DNA of 64,000 nt from a virus, in IMG/VR virus record IMGVR_UViG_3300001533_000699; one strand, given 5' to 3'. The notes under the pieces were generated by a model. That model saw only the letters and a program-made list of their open reading frames with translations, had not been told where the DNA came from and did no database searches. The position numbers and the translations under genes are program-made. Numbering within the stretch: position 1 is the first letter of the stretch; each line of letters begins with the position of its first letter. Below, piece by piece: positions 20,834 to 54,695 of the stretch.

Positions 20834-21129
20834 AACAAAAATTCAAAGATAAAATAGATGAATCAATACATGCTTTAGTCGATGATATTGAGCAGTGTTG
20901 TAAGGATGATGATAGAGACGCATTAAAAGGTGTGTTAAACTACACTATTACATCTATATTACTAGCAACATTTACAAAGCATGGAATAAGTTATTCTAAA
21001 TTTGCCGATGTTATTGGTACTCTAGAATGTTCAAAGCTAGAAATATATCGACGGGCAATAGCGTCATATGAAGACCGTTGTATACGCAACAACGGAGATA
21101 TAGAAGAGTTTATCCGCATGGGCCTGTAA
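20821..21129 (+). CDS. conserved phage hypothetical protein
   Basis: MPYIK, G.LNY.IT, G.LEC.KLE.YRR....YED.....NGD. Confidence 0.75.
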   Translation: MPYIKQKFKDKIDESIHALVDDIEQCCKDDDRDALKGVLNYTITSILLATFTKHGISYSKFADVIGTLECSKLEIYRRAIASYEDRCIRNNGDIEEFIRMGL

Positions 21130-21408
21130 GGTTTCGACGGGTTGTGAAAGTTTGTGACGGCATTCCGTGGTTCGTCTGATGGCCACGTAAAAATCAGACG
21201 AAAAAAGTAACTGGCACCTGCCATACTTTGGCTCTGTGCGCCTGAGCACAGGTTTCTACTTGTAGAAGCAGCTTAATCTTGTGCTACAACAAGAGCGTAT
21301 AAGCATTTGAGACAGTTTTGTTTGTTGTACAGCTTAACAACATACTATGAATGTAGATGTTACTTATAGAAGCAAAGCCGGACAACGGTTCAATTCCGTT
21401 CAGGTCCA
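21120..21408 (+). ncRNA. ssrA: tmRNA
   Basis: 5' GGGCCTG-TAAGGTTTCGAC; 3' T arm AACGG-TTCAATT-CCGTT and CAGGTCC-A; G3.U pair; pk1-like region then TAACT and tag ORF 21213-21245 (GTCHTLALCA*). Confidence 0.9.
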
Positions 21409-21510
21409 CTGAATCTGATAAGGTGTATAATATAGAAGAAAGCCGATATCAACAAATGGTTTGAGCTTGTTCCTTTCTTTTTGTCTTAAAAATTACATAA
21501 GGAAGTATGA

Positions 21511-21852
21511 ATGAATACTAAATTAGCTAGGGCGATTATGGCCGCTGAAACAGCCAAAGCACAAGGCACACTAGACTTTAAGACGGCAACTTGGTTGGTT
21601 GCGGCGTGGGTAGCCTTCGCAGCAGAATCTGTTGTGCAATTAGCTAACCCTAATGAATACGTAGATAAGGCCGCTCTTACAGATATGTTAGAGACCAGTT
21701 GGAAACAACTTAGTGCTGTAATTGATGACATACCTATGAGTTTGTTTACTAACTTCATTTGGGTATCAGCACGTTCAAGAGTGCTATCTGTAATACCATC
21801 AGCCGTGGATTATTTGGCCACAGAACTAGATAAAGGAGAAAATCACTCATGA
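21511..21852 (+). CDS. hypothetical protein
   Basis: RBS AAGGA; first gene of the membrane/secreted cluster. Confidence 0.6.
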   Translation: MNTKLARAIMAAETAKAQGTLDFKTATWLVAAWVAFAAESVVQLANPNEYVDKAALTDMLETSWKQLSAVIDDIPMSLFTNFIWVSARSRVLSVIPSAVDYLATELDKGENHS

Positions 21853-22148
21853 ATTTGATTCAATTAAGCATTGTCATATTAGCAGCAGTGGGTGTTGTTA
21901 TGATGTTCGGTGACCAATTACTGGTGGTGTGGGATAAGGTTAAGTCGTTTTTTAAGTCCGCAGTACAACCTTCTCCATCGCCAGTGTCTGTAGAATTAGA
22001 CACTAACGATATGTTCAGTAAAATACGTCATCTTATTACTTTAGCAGAGCAAAGTGAAGCTGCTGGAGTAGATAAGGCTGGTGAATTACTACGTCAAGCT
22101 GCCGCTACTGCATTATTAGACAAGAAGGTTAGCGTAGTTAATGAATAA
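21849..22148 (+). CDS. membrane-anchored hypothetical protein
   Basis: N-terminal TM segment. Confidence 0.6.
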   Translation: MNLIQLSIVILAAVGVVMMFGDQLLVVWDKVKSFFKSAVQPSPSPVSVELDTNDMFSKIRHLITLAEQSEAAGVDKAGELLRQAAATALLDKKVSVVNE

Positions 22149-22449
22149 ACCATCTCATTATAGTAGTACTGATTTCAAATATGACTGTGCTACGATAGGT
22201 TTTATATTTGGTTTCTTGTGCGTATTCTTTAGTGAGGCTTTGTTTTCACTTGGATTCTTAACTACAGTAGGTATTCTATTAACCATAATGATGCCTTTAT
22301 CTGAAGTTCTTGGAAGTAATGATGCTGGTTGGTTAGCGCTGTTCATTATATATCCTTTAGCTATGTTCATCAACGGTGTTGTGTATGGTGGTATAGGATA
22401 TGGTATTGGTAAATTAATAACACTTTTTATAAAGGATAAAAACCCATGA
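22141..22449 (+). CDS. multi-pass membrane protein
   Basis: 2-3 hydrophobic segments. Confidence 0.55.
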   Translation: MNKPSHYSSTDFKYDCATIGFIFGFLCVFFSEALFSLGFLTTVGILLTIMMPLSEVLGSNDAGWLALFIIYPLAMFINGVVYGGIGYGIGKLITLFIKDKNP

Positions 22450-22853
22450 AGACAAAACAATTTATGGGGGTGATACTAGTTTTAGCTGCATTAGGTCTAT
22501 ACGGCGTAGACCAAGGCTATATAGTATTGCCGGATAGTATTACGCCAAAACCATCGCCACCATCTGTCTTATATGGTATTGTTATAGAAGAGACAAATGA
22601 GCGTACCCCTGAACAAAATATTGTACTGTCTTCGCCAATTGTAAGAGGACTGTTTGACAAACCAGAGCACTTTAGACCTATCGACCCAAACACAAAGGTA
22701 ACACCAGATTTACAGAAATTCAAGGATAAAGCTAAGGCTAGGGAGGGTGATGTTACATTATTCCTAATAGAACCTAATGGTACTATTCATTATGAGGGAG
22801 ACCTACCAAATACGGTTGAAGAATTTCAACGATTATTTAGGGAGATAAAATAA
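22446..22853 (+). CDS. exported hypothetical protein
   Basis: Signal/TM segment, Pro-rich linker. Confidence 0.6.
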   Translation: MKTKQFMGVILVLAALGLYGVDQGYIVLPDSITPKPSPPSVLYGIVIEETNERTPEQNIVLSSPIVRGLFDKPEHFRPIDPNTKVTPDLQKFKDKAKAREGDVTLFLIEPNGTIHYEGDLPNTVEEFQRLFREIK

Positions 22854-23584
22854 TGAATACATACGGCGTCATACCATCCGGCTATCGTACTGGTTGTTTG
22901 CCAAGAACCACCAAACCTGGAGAGTTTTGTCCATTATTTGGGTCGAGAATTCGGGTCATTCCACGTTCTGACTGGGCAACATACACAGGTAAAATCAGCC
23001 TGCGTCATTTTGTTAGAGAAATACTTAATCAGGGTCGTGTAGGTAGTTGTGCCAGCGAATCATCAACACAGTCGCTGATGATTATACGTGCATTTGCTGG
23101 TTTACCACATGTTAGTTTGAATCCTTATTTTGTATATAATACTGTTTGTGGCGGAAGAGACCAGGGCAGTACTATAGATAGTAATTTGAAGTTCTTACGT
23201 GAAGTAGGTGTCCCGCCAATATCTATATGGCCAAGAGATAAGGGGTGGCAAACTAGACCATCGGAAGAAGCAATAGAAGCCGCAAAGGATTTTCGTATTC
23301 TAGAGTTCTATGATATTAGCACTATAGAAGAAATGGTTACTGCGCTTTTCTTAGGATTTCCAGTGGTGTACGGTGCAAACGGTCATGCAGTCGTAAAGGT
23401 GGAACACCTAAATGACAGAGAAGGTTTAGATGTTAATAGTTGGGGTACTGACTGGGGCGACGGTGGTTTTGGCGTTTGGGTACCATACAGCACGATAGGC
23501 AGCAGTCTACGATATGGTGCGTTTGCCGTAAGAACTTCACTACAGAACGACAATCTATTTGATGTTGAAAGGGCGGCTATCTAA
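22853..23584 (+). CDS. papain-like cysteine protease (C1 family)
   Basis: NQGRVGSCAS (Q, C), GHAV (H), NSWG.DWGDGG (N). Confidence 0.88.
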   Translation: MNTYGVIPSGYRTGCLPRTTKPGEFCPLFGSRIRVIPRSDWATYTGKISLRHFVREILNQGRVGSCASESSTQSLMIIRAFAGLPHVSLNPYFVYNTVCGGRDQGSTIDSNLKFLREVGVPPISIWPRDKGWQTRPSEEAIEAAKDFRILEFYDISTIEEMVTALFLGFPVVYGANGHAVVKVEHLNDREGLDVNSWGTDWGDGGFGVWVPYSTIGSSLRYGAFAVRTSLQNDNLFDVERAAI

Positions 23585-23586
23585 TC

Positions 23587-23841
23587 ATGAGAAGGGTTGG
23601 TATAGCGTTTATCGTTATTGCTATAATTGTGTTTTTGTTTAATAAGCAGGCAAGTGCACCTAGACCACCAATACCGCCAGATAATGAAGAAGAACAAGTA
23701 GTAGATTTTGAAAAGTGGTTTCAACATCACCAACTAGAATGCGATATATGTGAACCTGGATGGCCACCACGCTTATGTACAGAAGCATGGAATAAACTTA
23801 ATGCTCAAAGACTCCACCAAAAGGAGATAGAAAATGAATAA
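23587..23841 (+). CDS. membrane-anchored hypothetical protein
   Basis: N-terminal TM segment; CxxC. Confidence 0.55.
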   Translation: MRRVGIAFIVIAIIVFLFNKQASAPRPPIPPDNEEEQVVDFEKWFQHHQLECDICEPGWPPRLCTEAWNKLNAQRLHQKEIENE

Positions 23842-24541
23842 AATATTAGGAGTTACGATATTGTTTGGTTTAGTGGTTCTGATGCTGTTTGGTCCTAGTC
23901 TTAGTTCAACACATGTAGGCGATACTCCAGACAACAACACCACACAAATAGACCTTGGTACACCACAAGTTGCTGAAGAACAACCAGAAACCTTGAATAC
24001 AACAGAGACTAAAGAAGTAGTTGCTTCTATTGGCAGTATTCGCGAGATTATAAGAAACGCACAAAATGAATTACGGTTCTTTGCTAAGGCTAGACTCGTA
24101 ACACAAGAGTGGTTTACTGCTATGGCAAAGCTTACAGCAGAAGATATGCCGCAGATACAATCACACACAAATGTTATTGAAAACCGTGAGTGGGTACCAC
24201 CTCATAAACAAGTAATTTTGGTGTTCTATCAAGACGACTACTATCAAGAACAACGAATGGTGCCACAAGCACAAAAGCTAATGGATGAAGGACACTATGT
24301 ATATAGAATTCCAGCACGACGCACAGACCTATATCATCAGTACGCGGTTACACAAACGCCGATGTGGTTGGTTGTGCGAGATAAAGAAGTAATTTACCGA
24401 CATACAAAACCACCAACCTTCCCTGCTTATGAAGAACAGGTAGATGTACCCGTTAATGTTCAGGAAACACAAATATATTACACTCCATCATCTATGCAAA
24501 AATACGTCCCGTCATCATGTGGTATCGGAGGATGCAGATGA
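23834..24541 (+). CDS. exported protein with degenerate thioredoxin-like domain
   Basis: Signal peptide; LVFY...M.P...Y.V..TP..LV; C-terminal SCGIGGCR. Confidence 0.55.
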   Translation: MNKILGVTILFGLVVLMLFGPSLSSTHVGDTPDNNTTQIDLGTPQVAEEQPETLNTTETKEVVASIGSIREIIRNAQNELRFFAKARLVTQEWFTAMAKLTAEDMPQIQSHTNVIENREWVPPHKQVILVFYQDDYYQEQRMVPQAQKLMDEGHYVYRIPARRTDLYHQYAVTQTPMWLVVRDKEVIYRHTKPPTFPAYEEQVDVPVNVQETQIYYTPSSMQKYVPSSCGIGGCR

Positions 24542-24831
24542 ATCAACAACTTGTGGATTTGGTTACAGACTATGTGCAACGTAGGTCTTGGCGTGCGCGA
24601 AAATCAAATCATACTAGAAGAATAGTGCATATTGCGCTGTTTAATCTACAAAATGCCCAGCGTAATATACCTGTTGCTGAATTTGGACTACAGTCTTATA
24701 TAAAACATAAGGTACTAACACAACTCAAGACAACAGAATCATGGTATGTGGTGCAGTATATATTGTATTGGCTATTAGATGTTATAATAGAGTTAGTTAT
24801 TAAATGGTGGTTAAGTCAGCAGGAGAAGTAA
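24538..24831 (+). CDS. hypothetical protein (similar to next ORF)
   Basis: C-terminal hydrophobic helix ending WW as in 24834-25145. Confidence 0.55.
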   Translation: MNQQLVDLVTDYVQRRSWRARKSNHTRRIVHIALFNLQNAQRNIPVAEFGLQSYIKHKVLTQLKTTESWYVVQYILYWLLDVIIELVIKWWLSQQEK

Positions 24832-24833
24832 AA

Positions 24834-25145
24834 ATGAGCTTTGGTGATGTGGTAAAATCGGCTACAAACTACGTGTTAGAAAATTCATGGACTGCCAGAC
24901 ATAATAGCAAGCATGCCTCTCGTTTGGCAAACGCAGCTATCATGGAGATATATCTTATACCAGCTCATGAACGTAGACATATGAGTAAAAGTGATTTACG
25001 TGCTCATATCAAAGCTAAATTAAAGAAACGTAATGTTGGCAATCCAATAGTTATTACGTTGATTTTGCAAGTGTTAGTTGGTATCGTAGCTAAACTAATC
25101 GTAGATTGGTGGTGGAAAAATAAGAGAGATAATGTATGGCCATGA
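24834..25145 (+). CDS. hypothetical protein
   Basis: RBS AGGAG; C-terminal hydrophobic helix ending WWW. Confidence 0.55.
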   Translation: MSFGDVVKSATNYVLENSWTARHNSKHASRLANAAIMEIYLIPAHERRHMSKSDLRAHIKAKLKKRNVGNPIVITLILQVLVGIVAKLIVDWWWKNKRDNVWP

Positions 25146-25540
25146 ATCAAAATGAGTTGATTACGCCTGACAGTTCAGGTTTTCATATAGATGATATGGA
25201 CTTCATAAGTCCGACTAAAGACCCATGCTCTAGGGAAAACCCAGATGCGTTTTGGGTTGGATATGGTAAGTTTCGTCAAGGTAAGTGGTATACTGATTTG
25301 CCTCGTGATTCTCACTCTTTGGCTGGATGGTTTTTTGGGTTTACTGAAGGTAAACGATGGAAAAAATGGTGGCAAAGTAAATCTCTATGGCTAGCTACAT
25401 GCGTGGGTTTTACGTCTGTTTTGGCGCAGGTCGATGTCGGTGTAATATCAGATAATCCGCGCATAGTGGCGTTTGCAGCGAGTACTGTCGCTGCTGCGAT
25501 AGCCACTCTGAGATTCGTCACGCACACCACAGTAAAATAA
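25136..25540 (+). CDS. holin-like membrane protein
   Basis: KKWWQSKSLW followed by two TM segments and LRF.T. Confidence 0.5.
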   Translation: MAMNQNELITPDSSGFHIDDMDFISPTKDPCSRENPDAFWVGYGKFRQGKWYTDLPRDSHSLAGWFFGFTEGKRWKKWWQSKSLWLATCVGFTSVLAQVDVGVISDNPRIVAFAASTVAAAIATLRFVTHTTVK

Positions 25541-25555
25541 TTTGTTAGGTCGGTC

Positions 25556-25583
25556 TTGACTTTTGGGAATTTTGGTGTAAGAT
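25556..25583 (+). promoter_or_regulatory. promoter TTGACT-N16-TAAGAT upstream of tRNA cluster
   Basis: Hexamers with 16-nt spacer. Confidence 0.6.
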
Positions 25584-25608
25584 ACTAGTAACGAACAACG
25601 CACGTTTT

Positions 25609-25680
25609 TGCACGGTAGCACAATGGTAGTGCACCTGACTGTTAATCAGAGGGTTGCAGGTTCGAATCCTGCCTGTGCAG
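25609..25680 (+). tRNA. tRNA-Asn(GTT)
   Basis: Cloverleaf; loop CT-GTT-AA; TTCGAAT T loop. Confidence 0.92.
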
Positions 25681-25718
25681 CTTGGATTTTTTTAGGACAC
25701 TAATCAAGGAACAAATAC

Positions 25719-26030
25719 ATGCAAAAACCAAAAATCATCAAGTTAGTCAGCGGAGAAACAATTGTTGCACAAGTAGAGTTTATGACAAATAAACTACATT
25801 TGACACGACCTTTGTCTCTAATTGCGATGCCGCGCCCAGACCAAAGTGGTAGAATGAATACTGCTATTACCTTGATGGATTTTATACCTGGAGTTAAGGA
25901 CGAAAAAATGGTGTTGAATAAGGATATGGTTATGCTTGTTGTAGAACCTGACGAACAAATCAAAGAGTTGTATAGTAGGTTGACAAATCCAAATCATATT
26001 GAGGTTGCTAAACCAGAATTGATAGTTTAG
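25719..26030 (+). CDS. Sm-like/phage hypothetical protein
   Basis: IIKLVSGETI.A motif typical of phage Sm-fold proteins. Confidence 0.6.
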   Translation: MQKPKIIKLVSGETIVAQVEFMTNKLHLTRPLSLIAMPRPDQSGRMNTAITLMDFIPGVKDEKMVLNKDMVMLVVEPDEQIKELYSRLTNPNHIEVAKPELIV

Positions 26031-26036
26031 TTATTT

Positions 26037-26110
26037 GGGGTAGTGGACTAGTGGTTGATGTCATCACCCTTTCAAGGTGAAGGTCACGGGTTCAAATCCC
26101 GTCTACCCTA
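26037..26110 (+). tRNA. tRNA-Glu(TTC)
   Basis: TCACC-CTTTCAA-GGTGA anticodon arm; full cloverleaf. Confidence 0.9.
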
Positions 26111-26112
26111 CT

Positions 26113-26202
26113 GTGTATAAGTCAGATATTGGTTAGCTGAACTTGACTGTGAATCAAGAGGCCGTTAAGGCTGTGCGGGTTCGATTCCCGTTATACACCC
26201 CA
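26113..26202 (+). tRNA. tRNA-His(GTG), long variable arm, CCA encoded
   Basis: CTTGA-CTGTGAA-TCAAG; C73; variable stem GCC-GTTAA-GGC. Confidence 0.8.
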
Positions 26203-26209
26203 TATTATT

Positions 26210-26279
26210 AACGGTGTCCTCCTGGGAGAGGCGACGGATTCCAAACCCGTACGATGGCGTTCGACTCGTCACACCGTTG
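26210..26279 (+). tRNA. tRNA-Trp(CCA)
   Basis: AACGGTG/CACCGTT acceptor; loop TT-CCA-AA; short D arm. Confidence 0.78.
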
Positions 26280-26288
26280 CTTTATTAA

Positions 26289-30067: not shown

Positions 30068-30142
30068 CCTCCGTTGGTCCAGTCTGGAGTGGACGCTGCC
30101 CTGTCAAGGCAGAGAGCATGGGTTCAAATCCCATACGGGGGG
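30068..30142 (+). tRNA. tRNA-Asp(GTC)
   Basis: CTGCC-CTGTCAA-GGCAG; G73. Confidence 0.9.
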
Positions 30143-30143
30143 C

Positions 30144-30277
30144 TTTGGTGAATGATGTAAGACATACATGCATTGTAAGCCGTATGTGTAGGTTCAAGTC
30201 CTACTCTCACCGCTTTATGGTGAGATAGCTTAATTGGACAGAGCGACGAAAATTAGTCTTGCTAATTAGTCACCAAA
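30144..30277 (+). ncRNA. YrlA-like Y RNA (Y2) with permuted tRNA-like domain
   Basis: TTTGGTGA/TCACCAAA and GTAAGAC/GTCTTGC terminal stems enclose T arm (30188-30204), closed acceptor hairpin TCTCACC-GCTTTAT-GGTGAGA and D arm (30228-30244). Confidence 0.78.
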
Positions 30278-30279
30278 AC

Positions 30280-30351
30280 GGGCCTATAGTACAATGGTCA
30301 GTGCATATGGTTTACACCCATAAAATGGGGGTTCGATTCCCTCTAGGCCCA
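30280..30351 (+). tRNA. tRNA-Val(TAC)
   Basis: TATGG-TTTACAC-CCATA. Confidence 0.9.
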
Positions 30352-30536
30352 CTTATGACAATGGTTTCAATGGAGAAACAGTTATGAACGACGCACTATA
30401 TATTCAATTCATTGATGAGCGCATCAAAGATGGTGAACTACTGACTGCTTTATTTCACGTTGGTATAGAGGGTATTTTACAAGAATTTGAATGTTGGTTA
30501 CAATCAAATTTCATACTAACACAGAAATAAACATAA

Positions 30537-31509: not shown

Positions 31510-31578
31510 GCCGACGTAGAGTGGTCTCAACTACACATTGGTAATGTGGGGTTCCCGATTCGATTTCGGGCGTTGGCT
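31510..31578 (+). tRNA. tRNA-Thr(GGT), shortened D arm
   Basis: GCCGACG/CGTTGGC; loop TT-GGT-AA; T arm CCCGA-TTCGATT-TCGGG. Confidence 0.7.
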
Positions 31579-32525: not shown

Positions 32526-33260
32526 ATGACAAAGCTGAATCAAGTGATTGCGTTGGTGAACGGTAAGAAAACCCGTGCCAAGGAAGAACTGACTAAAATA
32601 TACAAGACAGTACAAAAACCAGAGGTGTTTGCTGGTATTTCGCGTGTGTATCAACCTAGCGACGATGAAGGTGAAACTATTCCACCAGAAAAAAAGTTGC
32701 CTCTGTTCACCACTAAACAGATACTGAATTCTGTACAAACAACGCTTACAGACTTGATTGATATTGTGGCAACGCAAGACCATGGTAATACTGAAGCAAT
32801 GGCAGGAATTGTTGTTGATGGTACACTATTAGTAGATAACGTGCCAGTTACGCACTTATTGTTTTTGGAAAAACAGCTTGTAGATATCCACACTTTGATT
32901 GCTGCACTTCCAACACTGGACCCGTCAGAACATTGGATGTATGACGAAAATCGTGGGTGTTATGTTACTGAACCGACACGCACCAACCGCACAAAGAAGG
33001 TGATGCGTAATCACGTGAAGGCTGCCGCGACAGATAAGCACCCGGCACAGGTTGACGTATACACAGAAGACATAAAGGTTGGCGAATGGTCAACCGTAAA
33101 AATGGGCGGGGCACTTCCTGCTGACGAAAAGCGCGATATACTTGAGCGCGTTCGTAAGTTGCAAGACGCAGTAAAAATGGCACGCGAAGAAGCCAATTCA
33201 CATGTTGTGACGCCAATAACTATAGCACCACAGCTATTAACGTACATTATCGGAGCGTAG
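32526..33260 (+). CDS. conserved uncharacterised helical protein (244 aa)
   Basis: KLNQ.IA...G.K, F.GI.R.Y.P..D.GE..P.E, VPVT.LLFLEKQL, AT.KHPAQV...TED..VG.W, K.ARE.AN; a pattern I recall from bacterial and phage hypotheticals. Confidence 0.85.
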   Translation: MTKLNQVIALVNGKKTRAKEELTKIYKTVQKPEVFAGISRVYQPSDDEGETIPPEKKLPLFTTKQILNSVQTTLTDLIDIVATQDHGNTEAMAGIVVDGTLLVDNVPVTHLLFLEKQLVDIHTLIAALPTLDPSEHWMYDENRGCYVTEPTRTNRTKKVMRNHVKAAATDKHPAQVDVYTEDIKVGEWSTVKMGGALPADEKRDILERVRKLQDAVKMAREEANSHVVTPITIAPQLLTYIIGA

Positions 33261-33411
33261 TCTTAGATTTAGTTTTAGTCTGAATCCTATATACTGTCAG
33301 TGTTGGTTCGAACCCAGCTCCCCTCACTTACATATAATTAGAGGGGGTAGCCCAATTGGTAGAGGCAGGTAAGGTGTTTTAGCTTCAGATTATCGCTCTA
33401 ATCTAAACTAC
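33257..33411 (+). ncRNA. circularly permuted tRNA mimic on a long stem (module A)
   Basis: T arm GTTGG-TTCGAAC-CCAGC, acceptor TCCCCTC/GAGGGGG closed by a loop, D arm GCC-CAATTGGTAGA-GGC; outer stems TAGTCTGAA/TTCAGATTA and TTAGATT/AATCTAA. Confidence 0.75.
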
Positions 33412-33414: not shown

Positions 33415-33569
33415 CGTGTTGTTTAATCAAGTTCATTGATGCATTATTGGAAGATGCTAGTTCGATTCTAGCCCCGACATCTTTAGTAATTTAATGTCGG
33501 GTAGCACAAAGGTAGTGTGGCCACTATAAGTATGACATCAATGATTAAACGGATATCGTAAACAACGTG
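33415..33569 (+). ncRNA. circularly permuted tRNA mimic on a long stem (module B)
   Basis: T arm GCTAG-TTCGATT-CTAGC, acceptor CCCGACA/TGTCGGG closed by a loop, D arm GCAC-AAAGGTA-GTGT; outer stems CATTGATG/CATCAATG and GTTGTTTA/TAAACAAC. Confidence 0.75.
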
Positions 33570-40686: not shown

Positions 40687-41416
40687 GATAGCGTATTTGT
40701 TTTTGGTATATAGCGATGTATACCATCCACAGGTGTGGGAAAAGTATTTCACTGGCGAATCAGACAACGTAAAAATATGTTGTCATGCCGCCAACAGAAA
40801 GCAAACTACCACACCATTTATACGCAACAATCTGATTCCATACTGGGTTTCTACTAAGTGGGCCGGGCTAGGTTTAGTCTTGGCCCACTTAGAGTTAATT
40901 CGTTATGCTTTACGTGACCCAAGTGTACAAAGGCTTGTGTTGTGTTCAGAAAGCTGTATACCGATTAAGTCATATAAAAAAACTCGCCAACTGTTATTCG
41001 ACACAGACGCTACTTGGTTACGCACTACGACACAATATACCTCAAGAATGTCTCGCGTTACTACAATACCAAAACAACACCACAGACATCATTCTCAATG
41101 GGTAGCTCTAACTAGAGAACACGCCTCTATGTTAGTTCGTTTCAACTTTCTAGGAGATTTTATCAATTGTGTAGTACCAGACGAACATTATGTTGGGTCA
41201 GTATTAGTACATCTTGGCGAAGCAGAACGCATATTACAAAAAAGCCAAACATATGCACAATGGTATAAACTGTCACCGGTTCAGTTCACACCAAGAGAAC
41301 ACACACAAATATCTACTCAATTGATACAAAACTTGAAAAAATCCGATGCTTTATTTGCTAGAAAATTTCCCGCAAATAGTTGCATAAACCAACATTGGAA
41401 GGATATCATAGAGTGA
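40667..41416 (+). CDS. core-2/I-branching (GT14-like) glycosyltransferase
   Basis: KIAYLFL, T.W, SESCIP, SQW..L.R, PDEHY, LFARKF. Confidence 0.8.
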
Positions 41417-42246
41417 GTTTTATACAGAAAGTCAAAACCAGAGTTCATAATGCCAACGAATTCGCTAAATTTAAGAATTTAGTAACTGCATACAGCCTAT
41501 GTATCAAACACGATATTATAATACCAAAGCTGTATTTTATTCTTTCACAAGAAGAAGCTACTGCAACATCATACGAAGATTTATATCATCGTTTACCTAA
41601 TCTGTTCACCATAAGACCAAGCATATTTCTAAATAATAAGTATGATTATATGTTGCGTGATGACGGTCTTACGCTGCATAATTTTGCAACCGGTCAAGAC
41701 GACCAACCACAAAACATATATAAGACCCAATGCGATGCAATGCAAAGCATTGATAATTCTTCTTTATTGTTTGAAGAGTTCCCATTAGTAAATCATGTGT
41801 TACAATACCCCACACACTATCGTTTACACACGTTTTACGGTGGTGTAGCACTAATACAAATAGTTAAAGTCGATGGAAAAATGGGTTGGTGCAATAACCA
41901 GGGTAAGATATTGGCGACCACCAATGACAACACATCCTTACAGTCTCACGACATACCACAGCATAAGGCTATGGAATCGTTAGTGAATGCTGGGCGAAAA
42001 CTATCCCTAGCCACAAAACAACCATATATTAGAATCGACTTTGTGTTATCTACTCACGGCCCTATGTTTAGAAGCTTTGCGTGTATCCCAGGAGATGTTC
42101 GTTCACAAACATTCGCAACATTCTATCAACAAATAGACGAACAACTTGATAATGAGTGGATAGCAGCAGAAGAAAGAATAAAGAATGCCGATAATCCTAC
42201 CACAAAACCAACAATTAGTACAGACACGCCAGATGACAACGCCTAA
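41380..42246 (+). CDS. ATP-grasp-like protein (TupA-like, degenerate)
   Basis: LLFEEF, YR.H.F.G, YIRIDF, PG motifs. Confidence 0.5.
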   Translation: MHKPTLEGYHRVSFIQKVKTRVHNANEFAKFKNLVTAYSLCIKHDIIIPKLYFILSQEEATATSYEDLYHRLPNLFTIRPSIFLNNKYDYMLRDDGLTLHNFATGQDDQPQNIYKTQCDAMQSIDNSSLLFEEFPLVNHVLQYPTHYRLHTFYGGVALIQIVKVDGKMGWCNNQGKILATTNDNTSLQSHDIPQHKAMESLVNAGRKLSLATKQPYIRIDFVLSTHGPMFRSFACIPGDVRSQTFATFYQQIDEQLDNEWIAAEERIKNADNPTTKPTISTDTPDDNA

Positions 42247-43195
42247 GATTGATGTAGTAGACCTAACTGGTACATTGTGTTGTATCAGTAGTTATTTTAA
42301 TCCAATTGGTTGGAAAAGTAGATATGATAATTTTTGCATATTCTATGAACGCATGCTGCGTCAAAACGTCAATCTGTTAATTGGTGAAGTAGCATTACAT
42401 GATAGAGGTTTTCAACTACAAAATATTGTCAACGAAGAGCACCTAGCTTTTCAATTATGTGCACCAAATATATTGTGGCACAAAGAAAGCGTTTTGTCCT
42501 TACTATTGGGGCACCTTCCTGCTAATTGTGATAAAGTATGTTGGATAGACGCAGATATTTTAGTACAAAACAATGATTGGGTAGAACAAATAAACAATGC
42601 GCTCAATATGTATCGCGTTGTACAAGGCTTTAATTGGTGTGGAATGCTGCCTCACGGAGTAGAAGACGTTGACCGCATCGGAATTCATAGTTTTCCCACG
42701 GGTTTTCAAGACTGTCATAAATGCTATAGCTACATCAATGGCTTATTGAATAATGAACCGAAGTATTATAGTGGACAGCCAGGAATAATGTGGGCAGCTC
42801 GACGCTCTGTGTTAGAACGCATAGGATTCTATAAACATTGCGTCCTTGGTGGGGCAGACTATCTAACGGCGCGAGCGATGGCATACAAACATTATGACCC
42901 AAAAACATGTGAATTATTTAGTAAATTTAATTTAGCAACATATTTTCCATGGGCGCAAAACTGTGCGGAACAAGTAGACTTTAGCATTAACTATGTGTCT
43001 AATGTGGTATATCATTTGTATCATGGTCATATAGACGATAGAGGACACAACCATAGGCTACAACTACTTCGTGAGCTAGAGTTTGACCCACGAATAGATA
43101 TCAATGAACTAGAGAATGGTCTATGTAACTTCACAGATATTGGGGAAAGATTCATGGAGCCAACCAAACAGTTTTTTATACAAAGGAAAGAATAA
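42185..43195 (+). CDS. GT-A fold glycosyltransferase-like protein
   Basis: YFNP, WHKE..L, WIDAD, PG..WA.RR, LGG.D, HLYHG. Confidence 0.7.
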   Translation: MPIILPQNQQLVQTRQMTTPKIDVVDLTGTLCCISSYFNPIGWKSRYDNFCIFYERMLRQNVNLLIGEVALHDRGFQLQNIVNEEHLAFQLCAPNILWHKESVLSLLLGHLPANCDKVCWIDADILVQNNDWVEQINNALNMYRVVQGFNWCGMLPHGVEDVDRIGIHSFPTGFQDCHKCYSYINGLLNNEPKYYSGQPGIMWAARRSVLERIGFYKHCVLGGADYLTARAMAYKHYDPKTCELFSKFNLATYFPWAQNCAEQVDFSINYVSNVVYHLYHGHIDDRGHNHRLQLLRELEFDPRIDINELENGLCNFTDIGERFMEPTKQFFIQRKE

Positions 43196-45412: not shown

Positions 45413-45482
45413 GGCCCCTCCGAGGGATTGCGGCTTGATGACTACGAATCATTGATGGGCGGTTCAACTCCGTTAGGGGCTA
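45413..45482 (+). tRNA. tRNA-Arg(ACG)
   Basis: GATGA-CTACGAA-TCATT; GGCCCCT/AGGGGCT; weak D arm. Confidence 0.72.
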
Positions 45483-45502
45483 CTTGCGGTAGCTGAATGA
45501 CG

Positions 45503-48197: not shown

Positions 48198-48267
48198 GGC
48201 TCGGCCACCGGATGTGGAGGAAATTCTTCTAAAGTTTCCGTGGTGAGTTCGACTCTCACACGAGCTA
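48198..48267 (+). tRNA. tRNA-Arg(TCT)
   Basis: GAAATT-CTTCTAA-AGTTTC; T arm GTGAG-TTCGACT-CTCAC; compact D arm. Confidence 0.7.
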
Positions 48268-48315
48268 CATACAGACTTAACTCAATCACAACAATTTTTT
48301 CACACAGGCTCAACA

Positions 48316-48930: not shown

Positions 48931-49427
48931 GTAATTTCATTAAAGACAAAAAAAATGGTCAACACGCCGAAGCGATAGTGTTGAATCTAATGAATAACGC
49001 TGGGTTTAGCAGTAAGGGCGGCGTTGCAACAGATAGAAGATGGGATATAATTTCGCACTATGGATTAAATCAAATTACGATAGAAGTCAAATATGATATC
49101 TATGAACAACGTAGTGGTAACATAGCCATAGAAGTTTATAATCCTAAATCCAATATTCCCTCTGGTATTACTGCGACAAAAGCATTTATATGGGCACATG
49201 TTTTAGCAGAAAACGCAGTATGGTTTACTGTAGTTAATACTCTTAAGCAATATATGGACCATAAACCACCGGCAAAAATCATAGATATTGGCGGTGATAA
49301 AAACGCGACGTTATATCTATATCCAAGCCACGAAATTCTAGTGGATATATTTATCAGAGTAGATAACATACCTTCTAACGATTTACGTAATTGGGTAATT
49401 CAACAATGGGAACAACAATATGAGTGA
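48927..49427 (+). CDS. PD-(D/E)XK nuclease-like protein
   Basis: G..AE, WD, IEVK.D, GNI.IE, PSGI..T.A. Confidence 0.65.
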   Translation: MSNFIKDKKNGQHAEAIVLNLMNNAGFSSKGGVATDRRWDIISHYGLNQITIEVKYDIYEQRSGNIAIEVYNPKSNIPSGITATKAFIWAHVLAENAVWFTVVNTLKQYMDHKPPAKIIDIGGDKNATLYLYPSHEILVDIFIRVDNIPSNDLRNWVIQQWEQQYE

Positions 49428-49881
49428 CGATACTTATAACTGGGAAAAGGACAATAGATTGTGGGAGCGTGTTCTTAATATAGATGTTGTCGCAACAATA
49501 TATGTGTGTGGCGTAGGTGATGACGGTAGTCCAGAAATTACGTGTGGGTTTTTAGACATGGATGATAAGCTTTGCTTACCAAACGCGCCAGTTACACCAA
49601 AATATCATGCAGCAGAAGTGGCGATACAATTATTTAGGGAATACATGGGTGTTGACCTAAATACAATCGACATAGTTCCTTATGGATTTTTTGACCCAAT
49701 ACACCCACCATTACATGATAAACTTAACCGTAATATCATTTTATCTTATGCAACTCGTATTCATCCTGGTACACCCGTACACCATGATTTAAGGTTTATG
49801 AACTATGAAGAAATCAACATCGCTAGAGAAAGAATTGAACGAGGTCATTACGAAGCATATAGAGCAGGCTTTAGTGGATAA
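49420..49881 (+). CDS. hypothetical protein (possible degenerate Nudix fold)
   Basis: LP......A.R..RE..G-like spacing. Confidence 0.5.
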   Translation: MSDDTYNWEKDNRLWERVLNIDVVATIYVCGVGDDGSPEITCGFLDMDDKLCLPNAPVTPKYHAAEVAIQLFREYMGVDLNTIDIVPYGFFDPIHPPLHDKLNRNIILSYATRIHPGTPVHHDLRFMNYEEINIARERIERGHYEAYRAGFSG

Positions 49882-50206
49882 TCAAGACGTTGCTTTAGCT
49901 GGATGCCCATTCCAAGTACTTTTCACTGCTGATAAAGATAGCAACGTAAAAATAAATGTACGTTGGCCAGTAGATGACAATGTTCAGTATAACGGTGAAA
50001 TTATAGCCCGTATGTTAGAATCAATATTCAGCACAGAATGGCTCCAGCCTACTATAGATGCCGTACAGCGTTTTGCTGTAAGTAATAAACAAAAGTTGAC
50101 TGCTACTAACATTATGCAACGACTAAACGAATTACAACAAGAACGCAACATAATGAATCAAGTGTGTGTTAGACCACTAGAAGTTTTCCATAAGACACAA
50201 AAATGA
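49805..50206 (+). CDS. hypothetical protein (start probably downstream, near 49874)
   Basis: Fills the gap before thyX. Confidence 0.5.
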   Translation: MKKSTSLEKELNEVITKHIEQALVDNQDVALAGCPFQVLFTADKDSNVKINVRWPVDDNVQYNGEIIARMLESIFSTEWLQPTIDAVQRFAVSNKQKLTATNIMQRLNELQQERNIMNQVCVRPLEVFHKTQK

Positions 50207-51153
50207 TAGAATTCAAAGACAAATATTTTCCAGTGTTAGACCATGGTTTTTGTGCACTCGTAGATTACATGGGTGACGATACAGCTATTACAAGAGCGGC
50301 ACGGTGTAGTTATGGTGCTGGTAATAGAAGTGTATCTGATGACCGAGGTTTAATACGCACATTGATAAGGGAAAAGCATACTAGTCCATTTGAAATGTGT
50401 GAAGTTGTATTGCATGTTGGCTTACCAATATTCGTTGCGCGTCAATGGATAAGACATAGAACGGCAAGTCTAAATGAATATAGTGGTAGATATAGTATAA
50501 TGCCGTCTATATACTACACGCCAGATAATGATAGACTACAAGTGCAACACGCTAAGAATAAGCAGGGAAGTGGGCCTGTATGTATTGACGAAGACGCAAA
50601 GACCGAAATCAGCACACGGCGTGATGCGCTACGTCATTTTATTACTAACCACTATAATCAATGTCTAGAATTTGACCTTGCGCGTGAATTATCTCGTATT
50701 GACCTACCTCTTAGTACATATACTTTTTGGTATTGGAAGATTGACCTAAAAAACCTACTACATTTCTTACGGCTTAGGCTTGACCAACACGCTCAGTGGG
50801 AAATTCAACAATACGCTAAAGTCATAGCTGGTCTAGTAGCAAAGTGGGTGCCATTAACATGGGAGGCGTTTGTTGATTATGAGTTATGTAGTACAACATT
50901 CAGCAGACCAGAATTAAAAATACTTGATATTTTGTTCTACGCGCAAGAATTAGATATTGGCACATTAACAAACGAGCACATGTATTATATTCGTGGTTTA
51001 TGTGATAAAAATGGTCTTACAGGTAGAGAACAAGATACATTTATAGAAAAGCTCAAATGTCAACCAAACCTCCCAGCTCATATTGAACTAAACGTTAATA
51101 ACGCGAAGACCCCAGAATTTTACCAACAAATGATAAATCAAGGTGTAGTATGA
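50203..51153 (+). CDS. thyX: FAD-dependent thymidylate synthase
   Basis: H.SPFE, RQWIRHRTASLNEYSGRY, RELSR..LP, HAQWEI. Confidence 0.96.
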   Translation: MIEFKDKYFPVLDHGFCALVDYMGDDTAITRAARCSYGAGNRSVSDDRGLIRTLIREKHTSPFEMCEVVLHVGLPIFVARQWIRHRTASLNEYSGRYSIMPSIYYTPDNDRLQVQHAKNKQGSGPVCIDEDAKTEISTRRDALRHFITNHYNQCLEFDLARELSRIDLPLSTYTFWYWKIDLKNLLHFLRLRLDQHAQWEIQQYAKVIAGLVAKWVPLTWEAFVDYELCSTTFSRPELKILDILFYAQELDIGTLTNEHMYYIRGLCDKNGLTGREQDTFIEKLKCQPNLPAHIELNVNNAKTPEFYQQMINQGVV

Positions 51154-51764
51154 CAAAAAAAGTAGTGTGGGAACAATGGAAAGACCCATTGATGTCTAAT
51201 CAAACTGAAGACGTTATACCTGAATATGATAATGACTATAACAGTGGATTAAATAAACCAGTTCCTCAACCGTTCATACATACGCAATTTGGATTGCTGG
51301 CTATTATGAATCACATGTCAGCAAGTAATCACTTTGATTTTTGGATGATGCATACTAATTTTAATATAACTCATGATTTTGCTATTATGATTGAGGCATT
51401 GCCGGGCGTAGAAACAATTGAAGTTTACACTAGATATCGAATGCGTCTTGGTTTTCCAAAGTCTGGTCTATTTAAGTCTAATGAAATCATGAACCACATA
51501 ACAGAAATCATTAAACAGTTAGACACAGAAAAGACTAAACTGTTATTATCAGGTTTTGAAGAACAAATACAACAAAAGGTATTAGAAACTACAGGTCAAG
51601 TCTCAGAAAAATATCCTATATGGGCTATCTGGGTTGCGCCAAATGGCAAGATTGATATAATTGGTGCGGAGGTAAAAGATGAGATTTATGAGCATCAATT
51701 TAGTGTAATAACCAATGCACAAGAAGAGGTTGGTGGCACCATTTTAACATCAGAGGAATATTAA
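51150..51764 (+). CDS. hypothetical protein
   Basis: WE.W.DP, W..HTNFNIT, PGVE......RYR. Confidence 0.6.
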   Translation: MTKKVVWEQWKDPLMSNQTEDVIPEYDNDYNSGLNKPVPQPFIHTQFGLLAIMNHMSASNHFDFWMMHTNFNITHDFAIMIEALPGVETIEVYTRYRMRLGFPKSGLFKSNEIMNHITEIIKQLDTEKTKLLLSGFEEQIQQKVLETTGQVSEKYPIWAIWVAPNGKIDIIGAEVKDEIYEHQFSVITNAQEEVGGTILTSEEY

Positions 51765-52456
51765 TGCCTAGTCCAAAACGTAGAAACATATCTCAACGTA
51801 GTGAGATGATATATGATGTACATAACTTTGGTATTATACTTGATACTAGAGAGATTTTTATTTCACCACCATTAGATGAATCATTAGAAGTAGCTTGTAT
51901 CGACCACAGGGTATATCATCAGTTTATTCGTAATCTACAGATTCTGAATAGTATAGGCAACGAACCAATTTTAGTACATATAGGTAGTTGTGGCGGTGAT
52001 TGGCACTATGGTTTAGGTATATATGATGCTATTTATGCTAGTTGTCAAGATGAAAGGTCTTCAGATATTGTTGTTTTATCGCATGTTCATGCGCGCAGTA
52101 TGTCATCCGTTATTCCCCAAGCAGCCACGTGGCGTGTTTTGATGCCCAACATAGATTATCTCGTTCATTATGGTTCGTATGGGGATGAAGGTAATTACAC
52201 AAATGTGATGGCTAACATGGAGTGGTATAAAAAGGCCAATGAAGTAATGTTGTCTATATATCTTAAACGTATTCGTGAGGGACAGTTTTTCAAGAGAGAG
52301 GGCTTGGACGACAAACAAATTTTGACATGGTTGCGTCAGACAATCGACCAACGCCAAGAGTTTTATATGACACCTAGAGAAGCTGTGGATAAGGGGTTCG
52401 CAGACGCTATCCTTGGCGATGAAGGATTCGAAACCATTGATAAACTACGAGAATAA
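51764..52456 (+). CDS. ClpP-like protease subunit
   Basis: REIF, I.S.GG....G..IYD, ARSMSS (catalytic Ser position), H, YMTP.EA...G.AD.I. Confidence 0.8.
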   Translation: MPSPKRRNISQRSEMIYDVHNFGIILDTREIFISPPLDESLEVACIDHRVYHQFIRNLQILNSIGNEPILVHIGSCGGDWHYGLGIYDAIYASCQDERSSDIVVLSHVHARSMSSVIPQAATWRVLMPNIDYLVHYGSYGDEGNYTNVMANMEWYKKANEVMLSIYLKRIREGQFFKREGLDDKQILTWLRQTIDQRQEFYMTPREAVDKGFADAILGDEGFETIDKLRE

Positions 52457-52458
52457 TA

Positions 52459-52944
52459 ATGAGAAGAAATAAAAAACAAATTACAAATGATGAATTATAT
52501 GAAGCTAAACAAAAATATGCGTACACAATAAAAAGAACAACAGAACAATATAGGCATGTATTATCTATTGAGGTAAGAGAAGCATGTGGGGATATGGCTT
52601 TATGGAAATGCCTTCAATGCTATGACCCAAGCTTTAACCAGTCTGTGTCGTCATCATTATTTCGCTTTATACATTGGGAATGTCGTAGAGCACTAAGAGA
52701 CCTTAGACCAAAAACACCACACAGTCAATTACATGAAAACGTAACACAAGACGAGACACAGTATTTAAACATGATTATAAATGACTGTTTAGGTGTCTTA
52801 TGTAGTAGAGATAGACGTATAATAGAAGACAGATACCTATATCAATACACTTTACAAGAGATAGCAAATAAAGAAGGATGTTCCAGACAGGGTGTTAAGC
52901 ATATTATTGACCGTTGCTTAAATCGAATGTCTAAAGCATCTTAA
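52459..52944 (+). CDS. second sigma-70-family-like factor
   Basis: ALW.....YD, L..RDR.I...Y....TLQEIA...G.SRQ.V......L. Confidence 0.75.
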   Translation: MRRNKKQITNDELYEAKQKYAYTIKRTTEQYRHVLSIEVREACGDMALWKCLQCYDPSFNQSVSSSLFRFIHWECRRALRDLRPKTPHSQLHENVTQDETQYLNMIINDCLGVLCSRDRRIIEDRYLYQYTLQEIANKEGCSRQGVKHIIDRCLNRMSKAS

Positions 52945-53028
52945 TTTTGGTGTATGTACTGTATGGATAGTGGAATCTTTATTGTGGGACACAGGAAAGT
53001 ATTGTGATATAATAAAAAGAGGTAAAAA

Positions 53029-53577
53029 ATGTCTAACAACAAAGCGCACACAGACCTATATAGCAAAGCTATAACAGCAAATGATTTACATGATAATGGT
53101 GCTACTGTTCTAATGGGTGGTGATATTGATAGCTCAAAGACCGTAACAAATGCACCAGACTTAGCTATTACAGGCGCTGGTCGTAAAGCTCAGCCTGGAC
53201 CAGTACAAAGCGCACATACTGGCGCAACATACGCTAATATAAACGGCATATTTGCTAAATTAACAGCGGGTCAATATGCAGTAAAGGGTGGAAACATTAC
53301 TACACAACTTGCTGGTGTAGCATATCGTGGTCTACGAGGCGGCGGTAACGCTAACCAAATTCGCAGCATACACACGCTATTGACACGTTCTACAGTCATT
53401 ATTGATTCTTGGAATTACGCAACTGGTGTTGCAACTATAAATGAAGGTAGCCCAAGTTCAGACGATTTTGATTCTGGTAGTTACGCAACACCAACACGTG
53501 CCCTACCCGGTAATTTAATCGTTAATGAAACAGGTGGTACACCAAGCACAGAAGCTTATCAAGAAAAAACTGGGTGA
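53029..53577 (+). CDS. Gly/Thr/Ala-rich protein, possibly virion-associated
   Basis: Composition; RBS GAGG; own terminator. Confidence 0.55.
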   Translation: MSNNKAHTDLYSKAITANDLHDNGATVLMGGDIDSSKTVTNAPDLAITGAGRKAQPGPVQSAHTGATYANINGIFAKLTAGQYAVKGGNITTQLAGVAYRGLRGGGNANQIRSIHTLLTRSTVIIDSWNYATGVATINEGSPSSDDFDSGSYATPTRALPGNLIVNETGGTPSTEAYQEKTG

Positions 53578-53590
53578 ACTATGATTTAAA

Positions 53591-53624
53591 ATCTGGGGTG
53601 GGAAACCACCCTAGATATTTATTT
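53591..53624 (+). terminator. intrinsic terminator
   Basis: ATCTGGGGTGG-GAAA-CCACCCTAGAT plus T-rich tail. Confidence 0.7.
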
Positions 53625-53660
53625 ATAGTATCTACCAGTAACACCACGGAGTAACCACCA

Positions 53661-54038
53661 ATGAATGAACATAATGAATGCCCATTAACAACTCAAGAAA
53701 TATGTATTATGAAATTTCGTAATATTAAAGGTGCTTTAGCTGCTATACTTGGGTTGTTTACTGTACTTTTGGCTCTTGTAATATATGCCAGTAATCAAGC
53801 TTCTGGAGCAACAAATCAGTATATCAACGTAAAAGAGCGTATGAATACGTTATCGCTAGAAGTCAATACACAAACTATCGAACGCAAAGTTTCTGATAAA
53901 GTAATAATGACAAAAATGGCAGAGCTACAAGAAGAACTAGTGGCACAGAGGCATGAGCAAAGGCAACTACTAGAACGTATTTTATCACTACAGATAGAAT
54001 TTGCTAAACAAATGCGACTTGACAGCAGTCAAAATTAG
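53661..54038 (+). CDS. single-TM coiled-coil protein
   Basis: TM segment followed by heptad-rich region. Confidence 0.6.
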   Translation: MNEHNECPLTTQEICIMKFRNIKGALAAILGLFTVLLALVIYASNQASGATNQYINVKERMNTLSLEVNTQTIERKVSDKVIMTKMAELQEELVAQRHEQRQLLERILSLQIEFAKQMRLDSSQN

Positions 54039-54046
54039 TGTATAAT
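54019..54046 (+). promoter_or_regulatory. promoter TTGACA-N16-TATAAT
   Basis: Upstream of a tRNA/Y RNA cluster. Confidence 0.7.
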
Positions 54047-54081
54047 ACAAGTACCCCGGCGACAGGGATAATTGTCGCGCC

Positions 54082-54149
54082 GCCGATGCGAACGGGTTCG
54101 GGTCTGGTCTTGTAAACCGGACTACTGGGGTCAGCACCCAGCTTCGGCT
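54082..54149 (+). tRNA. atypical tRNA-Thr(TGT)
   Basis: TCTGGT-CTTGTAA-ACCGGA; GCCGATG/CTTCGGC; non-canonical T loop GTCAGCA and tiny D arm. Confidence 0.55.
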
Positions 54150-54150
54150 C

Positions 54151-54222
54151 TGACGAATGCGGTGATGCATACATAAACCAATGACATCGTTTATACGAAG
54201 TGCATCACATCACTAGTCGTCG
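54151..54222 (+). ncRNA. candidate minimal Y RNA (Y3)
   Basis: TGACGA/TCGTCG stem, GACGAATG motif, GTGATGCA/TGCATCAC stem, ATAAAC/GTTTAT apical stem. Confidence 0.62.
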
Positions 54223-54228
54223 TTTTTA

Positions 54229-54299
54229 GGCAGTGTGTGTTTGGTAACACAGTATCCCTCATAAGGATATCATGGTCAGTTCGATTCTGCCCTCTGCTA
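54229..54299 (+). tRNA. tRNA-Met(CAT) (elongator Met or Ile2)
   Basis: TATCC-CTCATAA-GGATA. Confidence 0.75.
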
Positions 54300-54301
54300 C
54301 T

Positions 54302-54375
54302 AGCGGGTGGTAGGCGTGGTCGCCTTTCTGGTCTCATAAGCCAGAGTTTCAGAGGTTCGATTCCCTGGCCCGCCA
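54302..54375 (+). tRNA. tRNA-Met(CAT), initiator-like 1:72 mismatch
   Basis: CTGGT-CTCATAA-GCCAG; A1xC72. Confidence 0.75.
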
Positions 54376-54491
54376 CTTAGGCACACAGAACTTGAAAGAC
54401 CGAATGTGGTTACATCGGTACGGTGGCAGAGAGTTCGTGTGTCTTTTATTTAGTCGGGTTCGGGTTAACATTTATTAATACTGCCACCGAA

Positions 54492-54563
54492 GACCCTATA
54501 GTCTAAAGGTTAGGACAGCAGACTCTCAATCTGCAAATCGGAGTTCGATTCTCCGTAGGGTCA
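54492..54563 (+). tRNA. tRNA-Glu(CTC)
   Basis: GCAGA-CTCTCAA-TCTGC. Confidence 0.9.
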
Positions 54564-54576
54564 CTGTGTGTATTAT

Positions 54577-54660
54577 GGCGTTGTGTCGAAATTGGTATAC
54601 GAGCCTGTCTCAAAAACAGGTGGGTATTAGCCCGTGCGGGTTCGACTCCCGCCAACGCTA
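54577..54660 (+). tRNA. tRNA-Leu(CAA)
   Basis: CCTGT-CTCAAAA-ACAGG; variable arm. Confidence 0.92.
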
Positions 54661-54695
54661 CTTATGGTAAAGAGCCACTATTATTAACAAAAAAC

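Follow-up and report, generated by a model that had tools for sequence, protein, structure and literature searches.

In the two-piece (circularly permuted) transfer-messenger RNA (tmRNA) the 3' strand of the acceptor stem and its tail precede the 5' strand, and the enzymes that process tRNA ends take out the linker, which leaves a functional acceptor stem. We analysed three tRNA mimics with the same arrangement, that is, with the acceptor 3' strand before the 5' strand in the gene, in an uncultured giant phage (IMG/VR virus record IMGVR_UViG_3300001533_000699) that also carries 29 tRNA genes and a tmRNA gene; the whole stretch of 64,000 nucleotides analysed is called the window. The subject is a short 3' signal, N73-C-T, in which the discriminator (position 73) is followed by C-T at positions 74-75, and which the mimics have in common with the tRNA genes and the tmRNA. 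The permuted tRNA genes of Cyanidioschyzon (cited in 10.1101/312249) show this arrangement as well. The products of both known systems are aminoacylated and act in translation, whereas the phage mimics lack an anticodon and a tag reading frame and show no identity elements that could be recognised, and the phage's own tmRNA, unlike the two-piece form, is an ordinary one-piece molecule.

A closer precedent is the YrlA RNA of Mycobacterium smegmatis, which is likewise a permuted tRNA-like Y RNA with a 7-bp stem, in whose closing loop the discriminator is followed by an encoded C. RNase P cleaves it in vivo as well as in vitro, and its 5' half is then found with a non-templated CA (PMC4201824); it was the only YrlA examined with a 7-bp stem, and this stem was named as the RNase P determinant (Chen et al. 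2014, RNA 20:1715, PMC4201824). Its halves undergo 'exonucleolytic nibbling and CCA addition' (10.1101/312249). What RNase P recognises is a 7-bp acceptor stem that stacks on the T-arm; guanines in loop L15 of the enzyme pair with C74 and C75 (PMC1874595). The cut product in M. smegmatis consists of two Ro60-bound halves, whereas processing of the phage mimics is what we infer here. The gene arrangement also differs, the M. smegmatis YrlA being directly upstream of rsr, whereas one phage mimic lies between two tRNA genes 11 kb from the Ro60 gene and the other two lie behind a DUF7873 gene.

Partial templating of the CCA end is already known, as is a YrlA that RNase P can cleave. In an extract of spinach chloroplasts, cleavage by the 3' nuclease (tRNase Z) leaves an encoded C74 on the tRNA, which the nucleotidyltransferase then extends by CA (PMC3161902), and most Mycobacterium tuberculosis tRNAs need a 'final or partial' CCA to be added (PMC10673834). 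The phage genes resemble these chloroplast and actinobacterial genes in that C74 is templated and the remainder of CCA is not; they differ from them in that the next base is nearly always U, which we saw in the phage and in Planctomycetota. Partial CCA is not treated by Ardell and Hou (2016), and a literature search found no paper on a discriminator-C-U rule for tRNA genes of phages or Planctomycetota.

Our reading, to which we assign a probability of about 0.6, is that the tRNAs, the tmRNA and the mimics share a host-style N73-C-T that serves processing by the host, and that the mimics are most likely nicked by RNase P, trimmed and completed with CA. What is new here is the junction signature tabulated over 213 mimic modules and its parallel with the flavour of the host tRNA genes, together with the phage C-T being traced to a bacterial style.

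The 3' ends of the tRNA genes and the tmRNA

ARAGORN at default settings called 25 tRNAs and one tmRNA in the window, all of them on the plus strand between 21120 and 54661. A lowered threshold added four weak candidates, located on the same strand in intergenic gaps: Thr-GGT (31510-31578), Arg-ACG (45413-45483), Arg-TCT (about 48198-48269) and Thr-TGT (54079-54150). The complete set thus consists of 29 dispersed tRNA genes (25609-54661), 25 of them confident. Rfam was used as a cross-check and confirmed most of the tRNAs as well as the tmRNA (108.8 bits); the four weak candidates fall short of the ARAGORN default or of E<1 in Rfam, and they include two of the three exceptions described below. 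Because ARAGORN prolongs gene ends through partial CCA matches, we located the discriminator by acceptor-stem pairing, independently of the called gene ends.

Positions 74-75 were C-T in 26 of the 29 tRNAs and in the tmRNA (21120-21411, plus strand), whose acceptor stem GGGCCTG/CAGGTCC contains a G3:U70 pair and is followed by A73-C-T. The exceptions were His (CCA), Thr-GGT (TT) and Arg-TCT (CA). The initial annotation had reached the same count by hand, with the same three exceptions, and the flanks taken from ARAGORN and acceptor pairing reproduced both exactly. With a CT dinucleotide frequency of 0.0435 on the plus strand, the binomial probability of at least 27 such ends in 30 is about 6e-34. 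A C74 without the rest of the CCA, which defines a partial CCA end, was found in 27 of the 29 tRNAs (26 with CT, one with CA) and in the tmRNA, and in the tight pairs Glu-His and Met-Met the whole spacer is C-T. N73-C-T appears to be a gene-encoded partial CCA end: the gene supplies C74, avoids C75 and continues with a U-rich trailer.

The complete CCA is confined to the tRNA-His gene (26113-26202), which has a long variable arm and does not encode G-1; its counterparts in two relatives read C73-C-T.

The tRNA mimics and their counterparts at other loci

The three mimics are on the plus strand, and the acceptor stem of each of them pairs at 7 of 7 positions. Y1 (30145-30279) is YrlA-like, and its acceptor hairpin, starting at 30205, reads TCTCACC, loop GCTTTAT, GGTGAGA. 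Y2 (33277-33394) and Y3 (33432-33548) are the first and second modules of a single RNA behind the DUF7873 gene (32526-33260, plus strand), and begin 17 nt past its stop codon on the same strand. The hairpin of Y2 starts at 33319 (TCCCCTC, loop ACTTACATATAATTA, GAGGGGG) and that of Y3 at 33473 (CCCGACA, loop TCTTTAGTAATTTAA, TGTCGGG). All three loops open with N-C-T-T, so that the N-C-T which had been noted earlier in these permuted modules is indeed present, each time after a full stem; the chance probability of finding it in three loops of three is about 8e-5. In a close relative of the phage (DUF7873 84% identical), N-C-T-T is preserved in the two orthologous mimic loops, while the later loop positions drift.

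All three mimics match the Rfam YrlA model (RF02553) with the order T-arm, acceptor hairpin and D-arm and with an enclosing terminal helix (cmscan, model positions 1-114). They score 39.7, 33.5 and 18.8 bits, less than the gathering score of 69, and much of the shortfall is due to longer acceptor loops and divergent closing helices. Rfam YrlA and the YrlA of Salmonella Typhimurium share with them the arm order, the conserved loops of the T- and D-arms and a helix that closes the molecule where a tRNA has its anticodon arm, but the phage stems have 7 bp instead of 6 and the loops 7-15 nt instead of about 4, and two of the three phage modules travel with DUF7873 and not with Ro60. To judge from these features, Y1-Y3 appear to be YrlA-class RNAs.

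The window encodes a Ro60/Rsr orthologue with TROVE and Ro60 vWA domains (17493-19070, plus strand), the usual protein partner of YrlA-type RNAs, at 11-14 kb from the mimic RNAs. The 5' strand of Y1 reads GGUGAAUG, one change away from the Ro60-binding motif GNCGAAN0-1G of the closing helix (Chen et al. 2014), and Y2 (GUCUGAAUC) and Y3 (CAUUGAUG) match this motif poorly. Y1 is probably the Ro60 partner, and Y2 and Y3 form the double mimic behind DUF7873, the place where tandem modules nearly always lie in phages and bacteria. For the DUF7873 protein itself AlphaFold2 gave a confident model (pLDDT 90) in which long helices are combined with beta-hairpins; a Foldseek search of this model against the PDB returned no match at E<=0.001, and a literature search found no paper on the family.

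Y1 occupies the entire gap from the tRNA-Asp trailer (...G73-C-T) to the first base of tRNA-Val, and therefore ordinary tRNA processing would release it. A Y RNA wedged exactly between two tRNA genes was seen twice, as Asp-Y1-Val (30068-30352) and as Pro-YrlA-Pro in Myxococcus phage Mx1 (8174-8454), and in such places RNase P and tRNA 3' processing could free the RNA without a promoter or terminator of its own. The Mx1 copy has a short stem, a tetraloop and no C-T.

We collected 80 viral and 80 bacterial DUF7873 loci and searched them with a strict finder, which asks for a 5-bp T-stem with a TTCRA-type loop, 7 bases, a loop of 3-40 nt, 7 bases pairing with the former at 7 of 7 positions, a T and a D-arm. 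A looser finder, with T-arm and D-arm but no rule for acceptor pairing, was dropped, since many modules were mis-registered and little was gained. One or two modules were found directly behind the DUF7873 gene in 72 of the 80 viral and 75 of the 80 bacterial loci. The finder matched 240 times on the gene strand and never on the opposite one, and the distinct modules were 213 (97 viral and 116 bacterial), all with 7/7-bp stems.

The second loop position, equivalent to C74, is C in 87% of the viral and 85% of the bacterial modules (about 86% overall). CCA at 74-76 accounts for 42% and 26% respectively (33% overall) and C-T at 74-75 for 38% and 52% (60 of the 116 bacterial modules; 46% overall). 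The first loop position is A, T or G and hardly ever C. At the other side, the last loop base (-1) is T in 65% of the viral and 52% of the bacterial modules, and the 5' strand begins with G (+1) in 82% and 84%. Most loops are 6-9 nt long, for example TCCACGT, ACCAATCAT, TCTTCGT and ACTCGA, and some long ones hold an inserted hairpin after N-C-T. Such a loop reads like a tRNA trailer and a leader fused together, with a putative discriminator, a full or partial CCA and a 'leader' of 2-5 nt that ends in U. The initial annotation had proposed a common 3' route for tRNAs, tmRNA and mimics, a proposal that this comparison supports well, given that the 213 loops resemble pre-tRNA junctions. Where a locus has a second module, its loop strongly prefers C-R-T at the three positions ahead of +1 (C 86%, G/A 93%, T 76%), a conserved 'leader' motif.

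Planctomycetota modules have C-T or T-T and never CCA, as in the tRNA genes of this phylum; CCA is present in 5 of 8 Chloroflexota modules, and the 109 Actinomycetota modules include 67 with C-T and 25 with CCA. The loop flavour seems, by this comparison, to follow the tRNA genes of the host phylum.

Searching all 160 loci for Ro60 with tblastn gave no match, and among five genomes with DUF7873-linked modules three had no Ro60 match. The two bacteria with Ro60 have a tRNA-like match just upstream of that gene and separate from the DUF7873-linked RNA (C148:601-688 with Ro60 at 1733-3340 in one of the two Planctomycetota genomes described below, and C24:43083-43189 with Ro60 at 41400-42890 in the other genome), which is likely a classical YrlA.

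Gene-encoded tRNA ends in relatives, bacteria and other phages

By megablast the tRNA island matched none of 50,697 phage records, and no relatives came up when viral contigs were scanned with Ro60 and with DUF7873 as single proteins. Relatives with DUF7873 were recovered by an alignment-based scan. Three syntenic contigs (125-171 kb, 43-49% G+C, Ro60 48-56% identical) have C-T in 13 of 13 tRNAs and in 3 of 3 tmRNAs, the tmRNA of one of these contigs being called by ARAGORN.

In bacteria, the closest style was found in Planctomycetota. A Pirellulales metagenome-assembled genome (MAG) has C-T in 19 of 30 sampled chromosomal tRNA genes, T-T in 4 and CCA in 1, and a second Planctomycetota MAG has C-T in 23 of 41, T-T in 8 and CCA in none. 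These shares of 56-63% include the highest value among the bacteria sampled (63%). Myxococcus sp. Y35 has C-T in 14 of 37 tRNA genes (38%) and CCA in 9. A Streptomyces has C74 in all 33 tRNA genes, with any base at position 75 (C-G in 6 of 33), and Herpetosiphon has CCA in all 34. Counting the 3' flavours across whole genomes by a T-loop pattern was tried as well and dropped, because the counts were swamped by chance matches.

Dense tRNA arrays, with 7-13 genes per 1-4 kb, are present on contigs of both Planctomycetota MAGs (C3:135799-140178 and C14:83029-84003 in one, C144:20207-22778 and C290:6499-8910 in the other, which is the one with Ro60), and could be prophage or co-binned phage DNA.

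Regarding other phages, Streptomyces phage Karimac has C74 in 40 of 40 tRNA genes (CT in 20, CA in 10, CG in 8, CC in 2) and Myxococcus phage Mx1 has C-T in 14 of 38. Both known phage-host pairs thus agree, Karimac being like Streptomyces and Mx1 like Myxococcus. The tRNA arrays of 80 further viral contigs have mostly C74 and then a base other than C, often as C-G. Large arrays that are mostly discriminator-C-G were seen in six IMG/VR contigs, for example in 23 of 36 genes of one of them.

From these sequences, the general rule appears to be that C74 is templated and C75 avoided, with U75 as a flavour of this phage lineage and of Planctomycetota. C-T would then be a bacterial style of tRNA genes and not an invention of the phage, which follows the bacterial partial-CCA style more strictly (90%) than the bacteria sampled. 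Planctomycetota is the phylum whose tRNA-gene style seems to fit the phage best, although the host assignment is unproven. The initial annotation had named a general C-T pattern in the host as an observation that would refute its inference. Such a pattern is found in kind, in Planctomycetota and, to a lesser extent, in Myxococcus, which bears on the actual host only as far as the assignment holds.

Processing of the mimics

What we observed is a conserved sequence pattern that runs parallel to the tRNA genes of hosts; the pathway that we propose from it is the following. The tRNA-processing enzymes of the host would accept phage RNAs written in the host style. RNase P would cut at +1 and, in tight arrays, would also make the 3' end of the upstream RNA, sometimes leaving just C-U. 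The trailer would then be trimmed back to C74 or N73, and a CCA-adding enzyme, either that of the host or the 245-amino-acid one of the phage, would complete the tail. In the mimics, the loop would be a fused 3' trailer and 5' leader, N73-C-U...U(-1)/G(+1), on a 7-bp stem of tRNA length, and a nick by RNase P is therefore the most likely outcome. This would yield an RNA in two pieces, shaped like a tRNA and with a CCA tail but without an anticodon. A possible explanation of the U after C74 is that C-U could match both L15 guanines (as C-G and U·G) without making up the CCA that blocks RNase Z.

The precedent of M. smegmatis YrlA makes an opening of the mimic loops likely, and in this respect the earlier proposal of two-piece RNAs that accept CCA is likely to hold. 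Its further suggestion, a possible aminoacylation of the mimics, found no support, the G3:U70 pair of the phage tmRNA being present in none of Y1-Y3.

The phage does encode a CCA-type enzyme, as had been annotated, although in truncated form. The gene (3743-4480, plus strand) specifies a class II CCA-adding-type nucleotidyltransferase of 245 amino acids with head and neck only; the body and tail domains, which hold the tRNA elbow, are missing from the usual length of about 400 amino acids. It aligns to 1MIV (E 1e-26) with the motifs GGFVRD...DIDF, DGEYVDGRRPEEV, RRDFTMNA and EDHLRLLRAVRF, and thus class II motifs A-D (GGxVRD/DxD, flexible loop, RRD, EDxxR) are all present. The best NCBIfam match is the CCA tRNA nucleotidyltransferase model (135.7 bits, below the cut-off of 290). 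A CC-adding or A-adding enzyme was rejected, because the flexible loop is present, the D-R-x3-E motif is CCA-like and the A-adding model scores far lower. We found nothing that ties the C-T signal specifically to this enzyme, whose role may just be extra capacity or the repair of damaged ends. The tRNA island of Streptomyces phage Karimac likewise contains a short 'nucleotidyltransferase domain' gene (13117-13638).

Several points weigh against our reading. Cleavage, trimming and CA addition we infer throughout, in the phage as in its relatives. The Y RNAs of S. Typhimurium and Deinococcus radiodurans are uncleaved (PMC4201824), and within the CCA that blocks RNase Z, C74 reportedly has the strongest effect (PMC3161902). 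The close relative whose DUF7873 is 84% identical is laxer, with C-T in about 5 of 9 tRNAs by automatic assignment and 6 of 9 by eye, the others reading T-T or C-C. The parallel between loops and tRNA genes is also inexact, in that phages with C-G tRNA genes carry CCA or C-T in their mimic loops, and never C-G. In the window, a tRNA-like 'top half' at 12766-12856, with a perfect 7-bp acceptor stem (GGCTAAG/CTTAGCC), a canonical TTCGAGT T-arm and no anticodon arm, ends in T73-A-T-G-TTTTTT, that is, T73-A-T instead of C-T; this element may sit at a terminator. Concerning the host, DUF7873 and its mimic RNA are just marginally closest to Planctomycetota versions, and an assignment through the phage TnpB was uninformative, the best match in 401 Planctomycetota genomes being only 35% identical. 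Finally, no canonical RNase Z was found in the two Planctomycetota MAGs, which are incomplete; the only proteins with a metallo-beta-lactamase fold found there have 244-262 amino acids (1492-2226 on the minus strand and 1021-1809 on the plus strand) and match RNase Z models in two pieces with the flexible-arm region missing, at 107-112 bits against a cut-off of 293.

Some of these points would also fit loops that stay closed, with N73-C-U or N73-CCA displayed to a partner as an imitation of a tRNA 3' end, or kept as a relic of a tRNA dimer or pre-tRNA junction. The candidate readers of such a loop are DUF7873, Ro60, the CCA enzyme, RNase P (by competitive inhibition) or a toxin that targets tRNA ends. 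The YrlA of S. Typhimurium and Yrn1 of D. radiodurans escape cleavage, the acceptor loop is closed in the YrlA crystal structure (10.1101/312249), and the hairpin inserted after N-C-T in some long loops looks like stable architecture. Furthermore, DUF7873-linked RNAs occur in genomes without a Ro60 match to our query, and therefore an unfamiliar loop reader is possible. However, the uncleaved YrlAs have 6-bp stems, whereas every module analysed here has the 7-bp stem that Chen et al. give as the RNase P determinant. The leader-like U(-1) and G(+1) on the 3' side of the loop would be needless for a pure display of a 3' end, and the loop flavour tracks that of the host tRNA genes, as is predicted for a processing substrate. 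We consider the closed loop possible, but rather unlikely.

A phage-specific code would make maturation depend on the phage, with C-T being read by the 245-amino-acid nucleotidyltransferase, the metallophosphatase (5392-6036) or another nuclease. The phage is indeed stricter (90%) than any bacterium sampled, and it has, besides the CCA-type enzyme and Ro60, its own RNA repair genes in the window, namely two RNA ligases and a polynucleotide kinase-phosphatase. On the contrary, C-T is the dominant ending of chromosomal tRNA genes in Planctomycetota and a common one in Myxococcus and Streptomyces, it also dominates the bacterial DUF7873-linked mimics, and the motifs of the phage enzyme are of the ordinary CCA type. 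Given C-T in the tRNA genes of Planctomycetota and Myxococcus, the signal would therefore be aimed at host enzymes, and we regard a code of the phage's own as very improbable. Chance, base composition or a misplaced discriminator can practically be dismissed: the tendency of ARAGORN to prolong gene ends through a partial CCA could have misled a manual count, but the placement by acceptor pairing is independent of it, the probability given above is far too small, and the pattern recurs in relatives with 43-49% G+C.

If our reading of host-style ends for host processing holds, the regularity of C-T in this phage is explained by the adoption of a bacterial style of tRNA genes, and positions 74-75 of phage tRNA genes would be a cheap clue to the host, as the two known pairs checked suggest. 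The dominance of discriminator-C-U in Planctomycetota, together with the failure to find a canonical RNase Z in two genomes, points to an undescribed 3'-end pathway in this phylum.

Regarding the mimics, it is a speculative and on the whole improbable generalisation that YrlA-like and DUF7873-linked mimics are generally matured to nicked two-piece RNAs which co-evolve with the host style and whose free CCA end is the working part. If true, that end could accept an amino acid or some other group, or it could act as decoy or sensor where toxins and defence nucleases target tRNA acceptor ends, and nicked mimics would be the rule in hundreds of bacteria and phages. Wang et al. (10.1101/312249) treat the M. 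smegmatis case as an exception, whereas the 213 modules analysed here suggest that it is common. More than 200 mimic loops read like pre-tRNA junctions and, therefore, processing of the M. smegmatis type may be the rule for a large RNA family.

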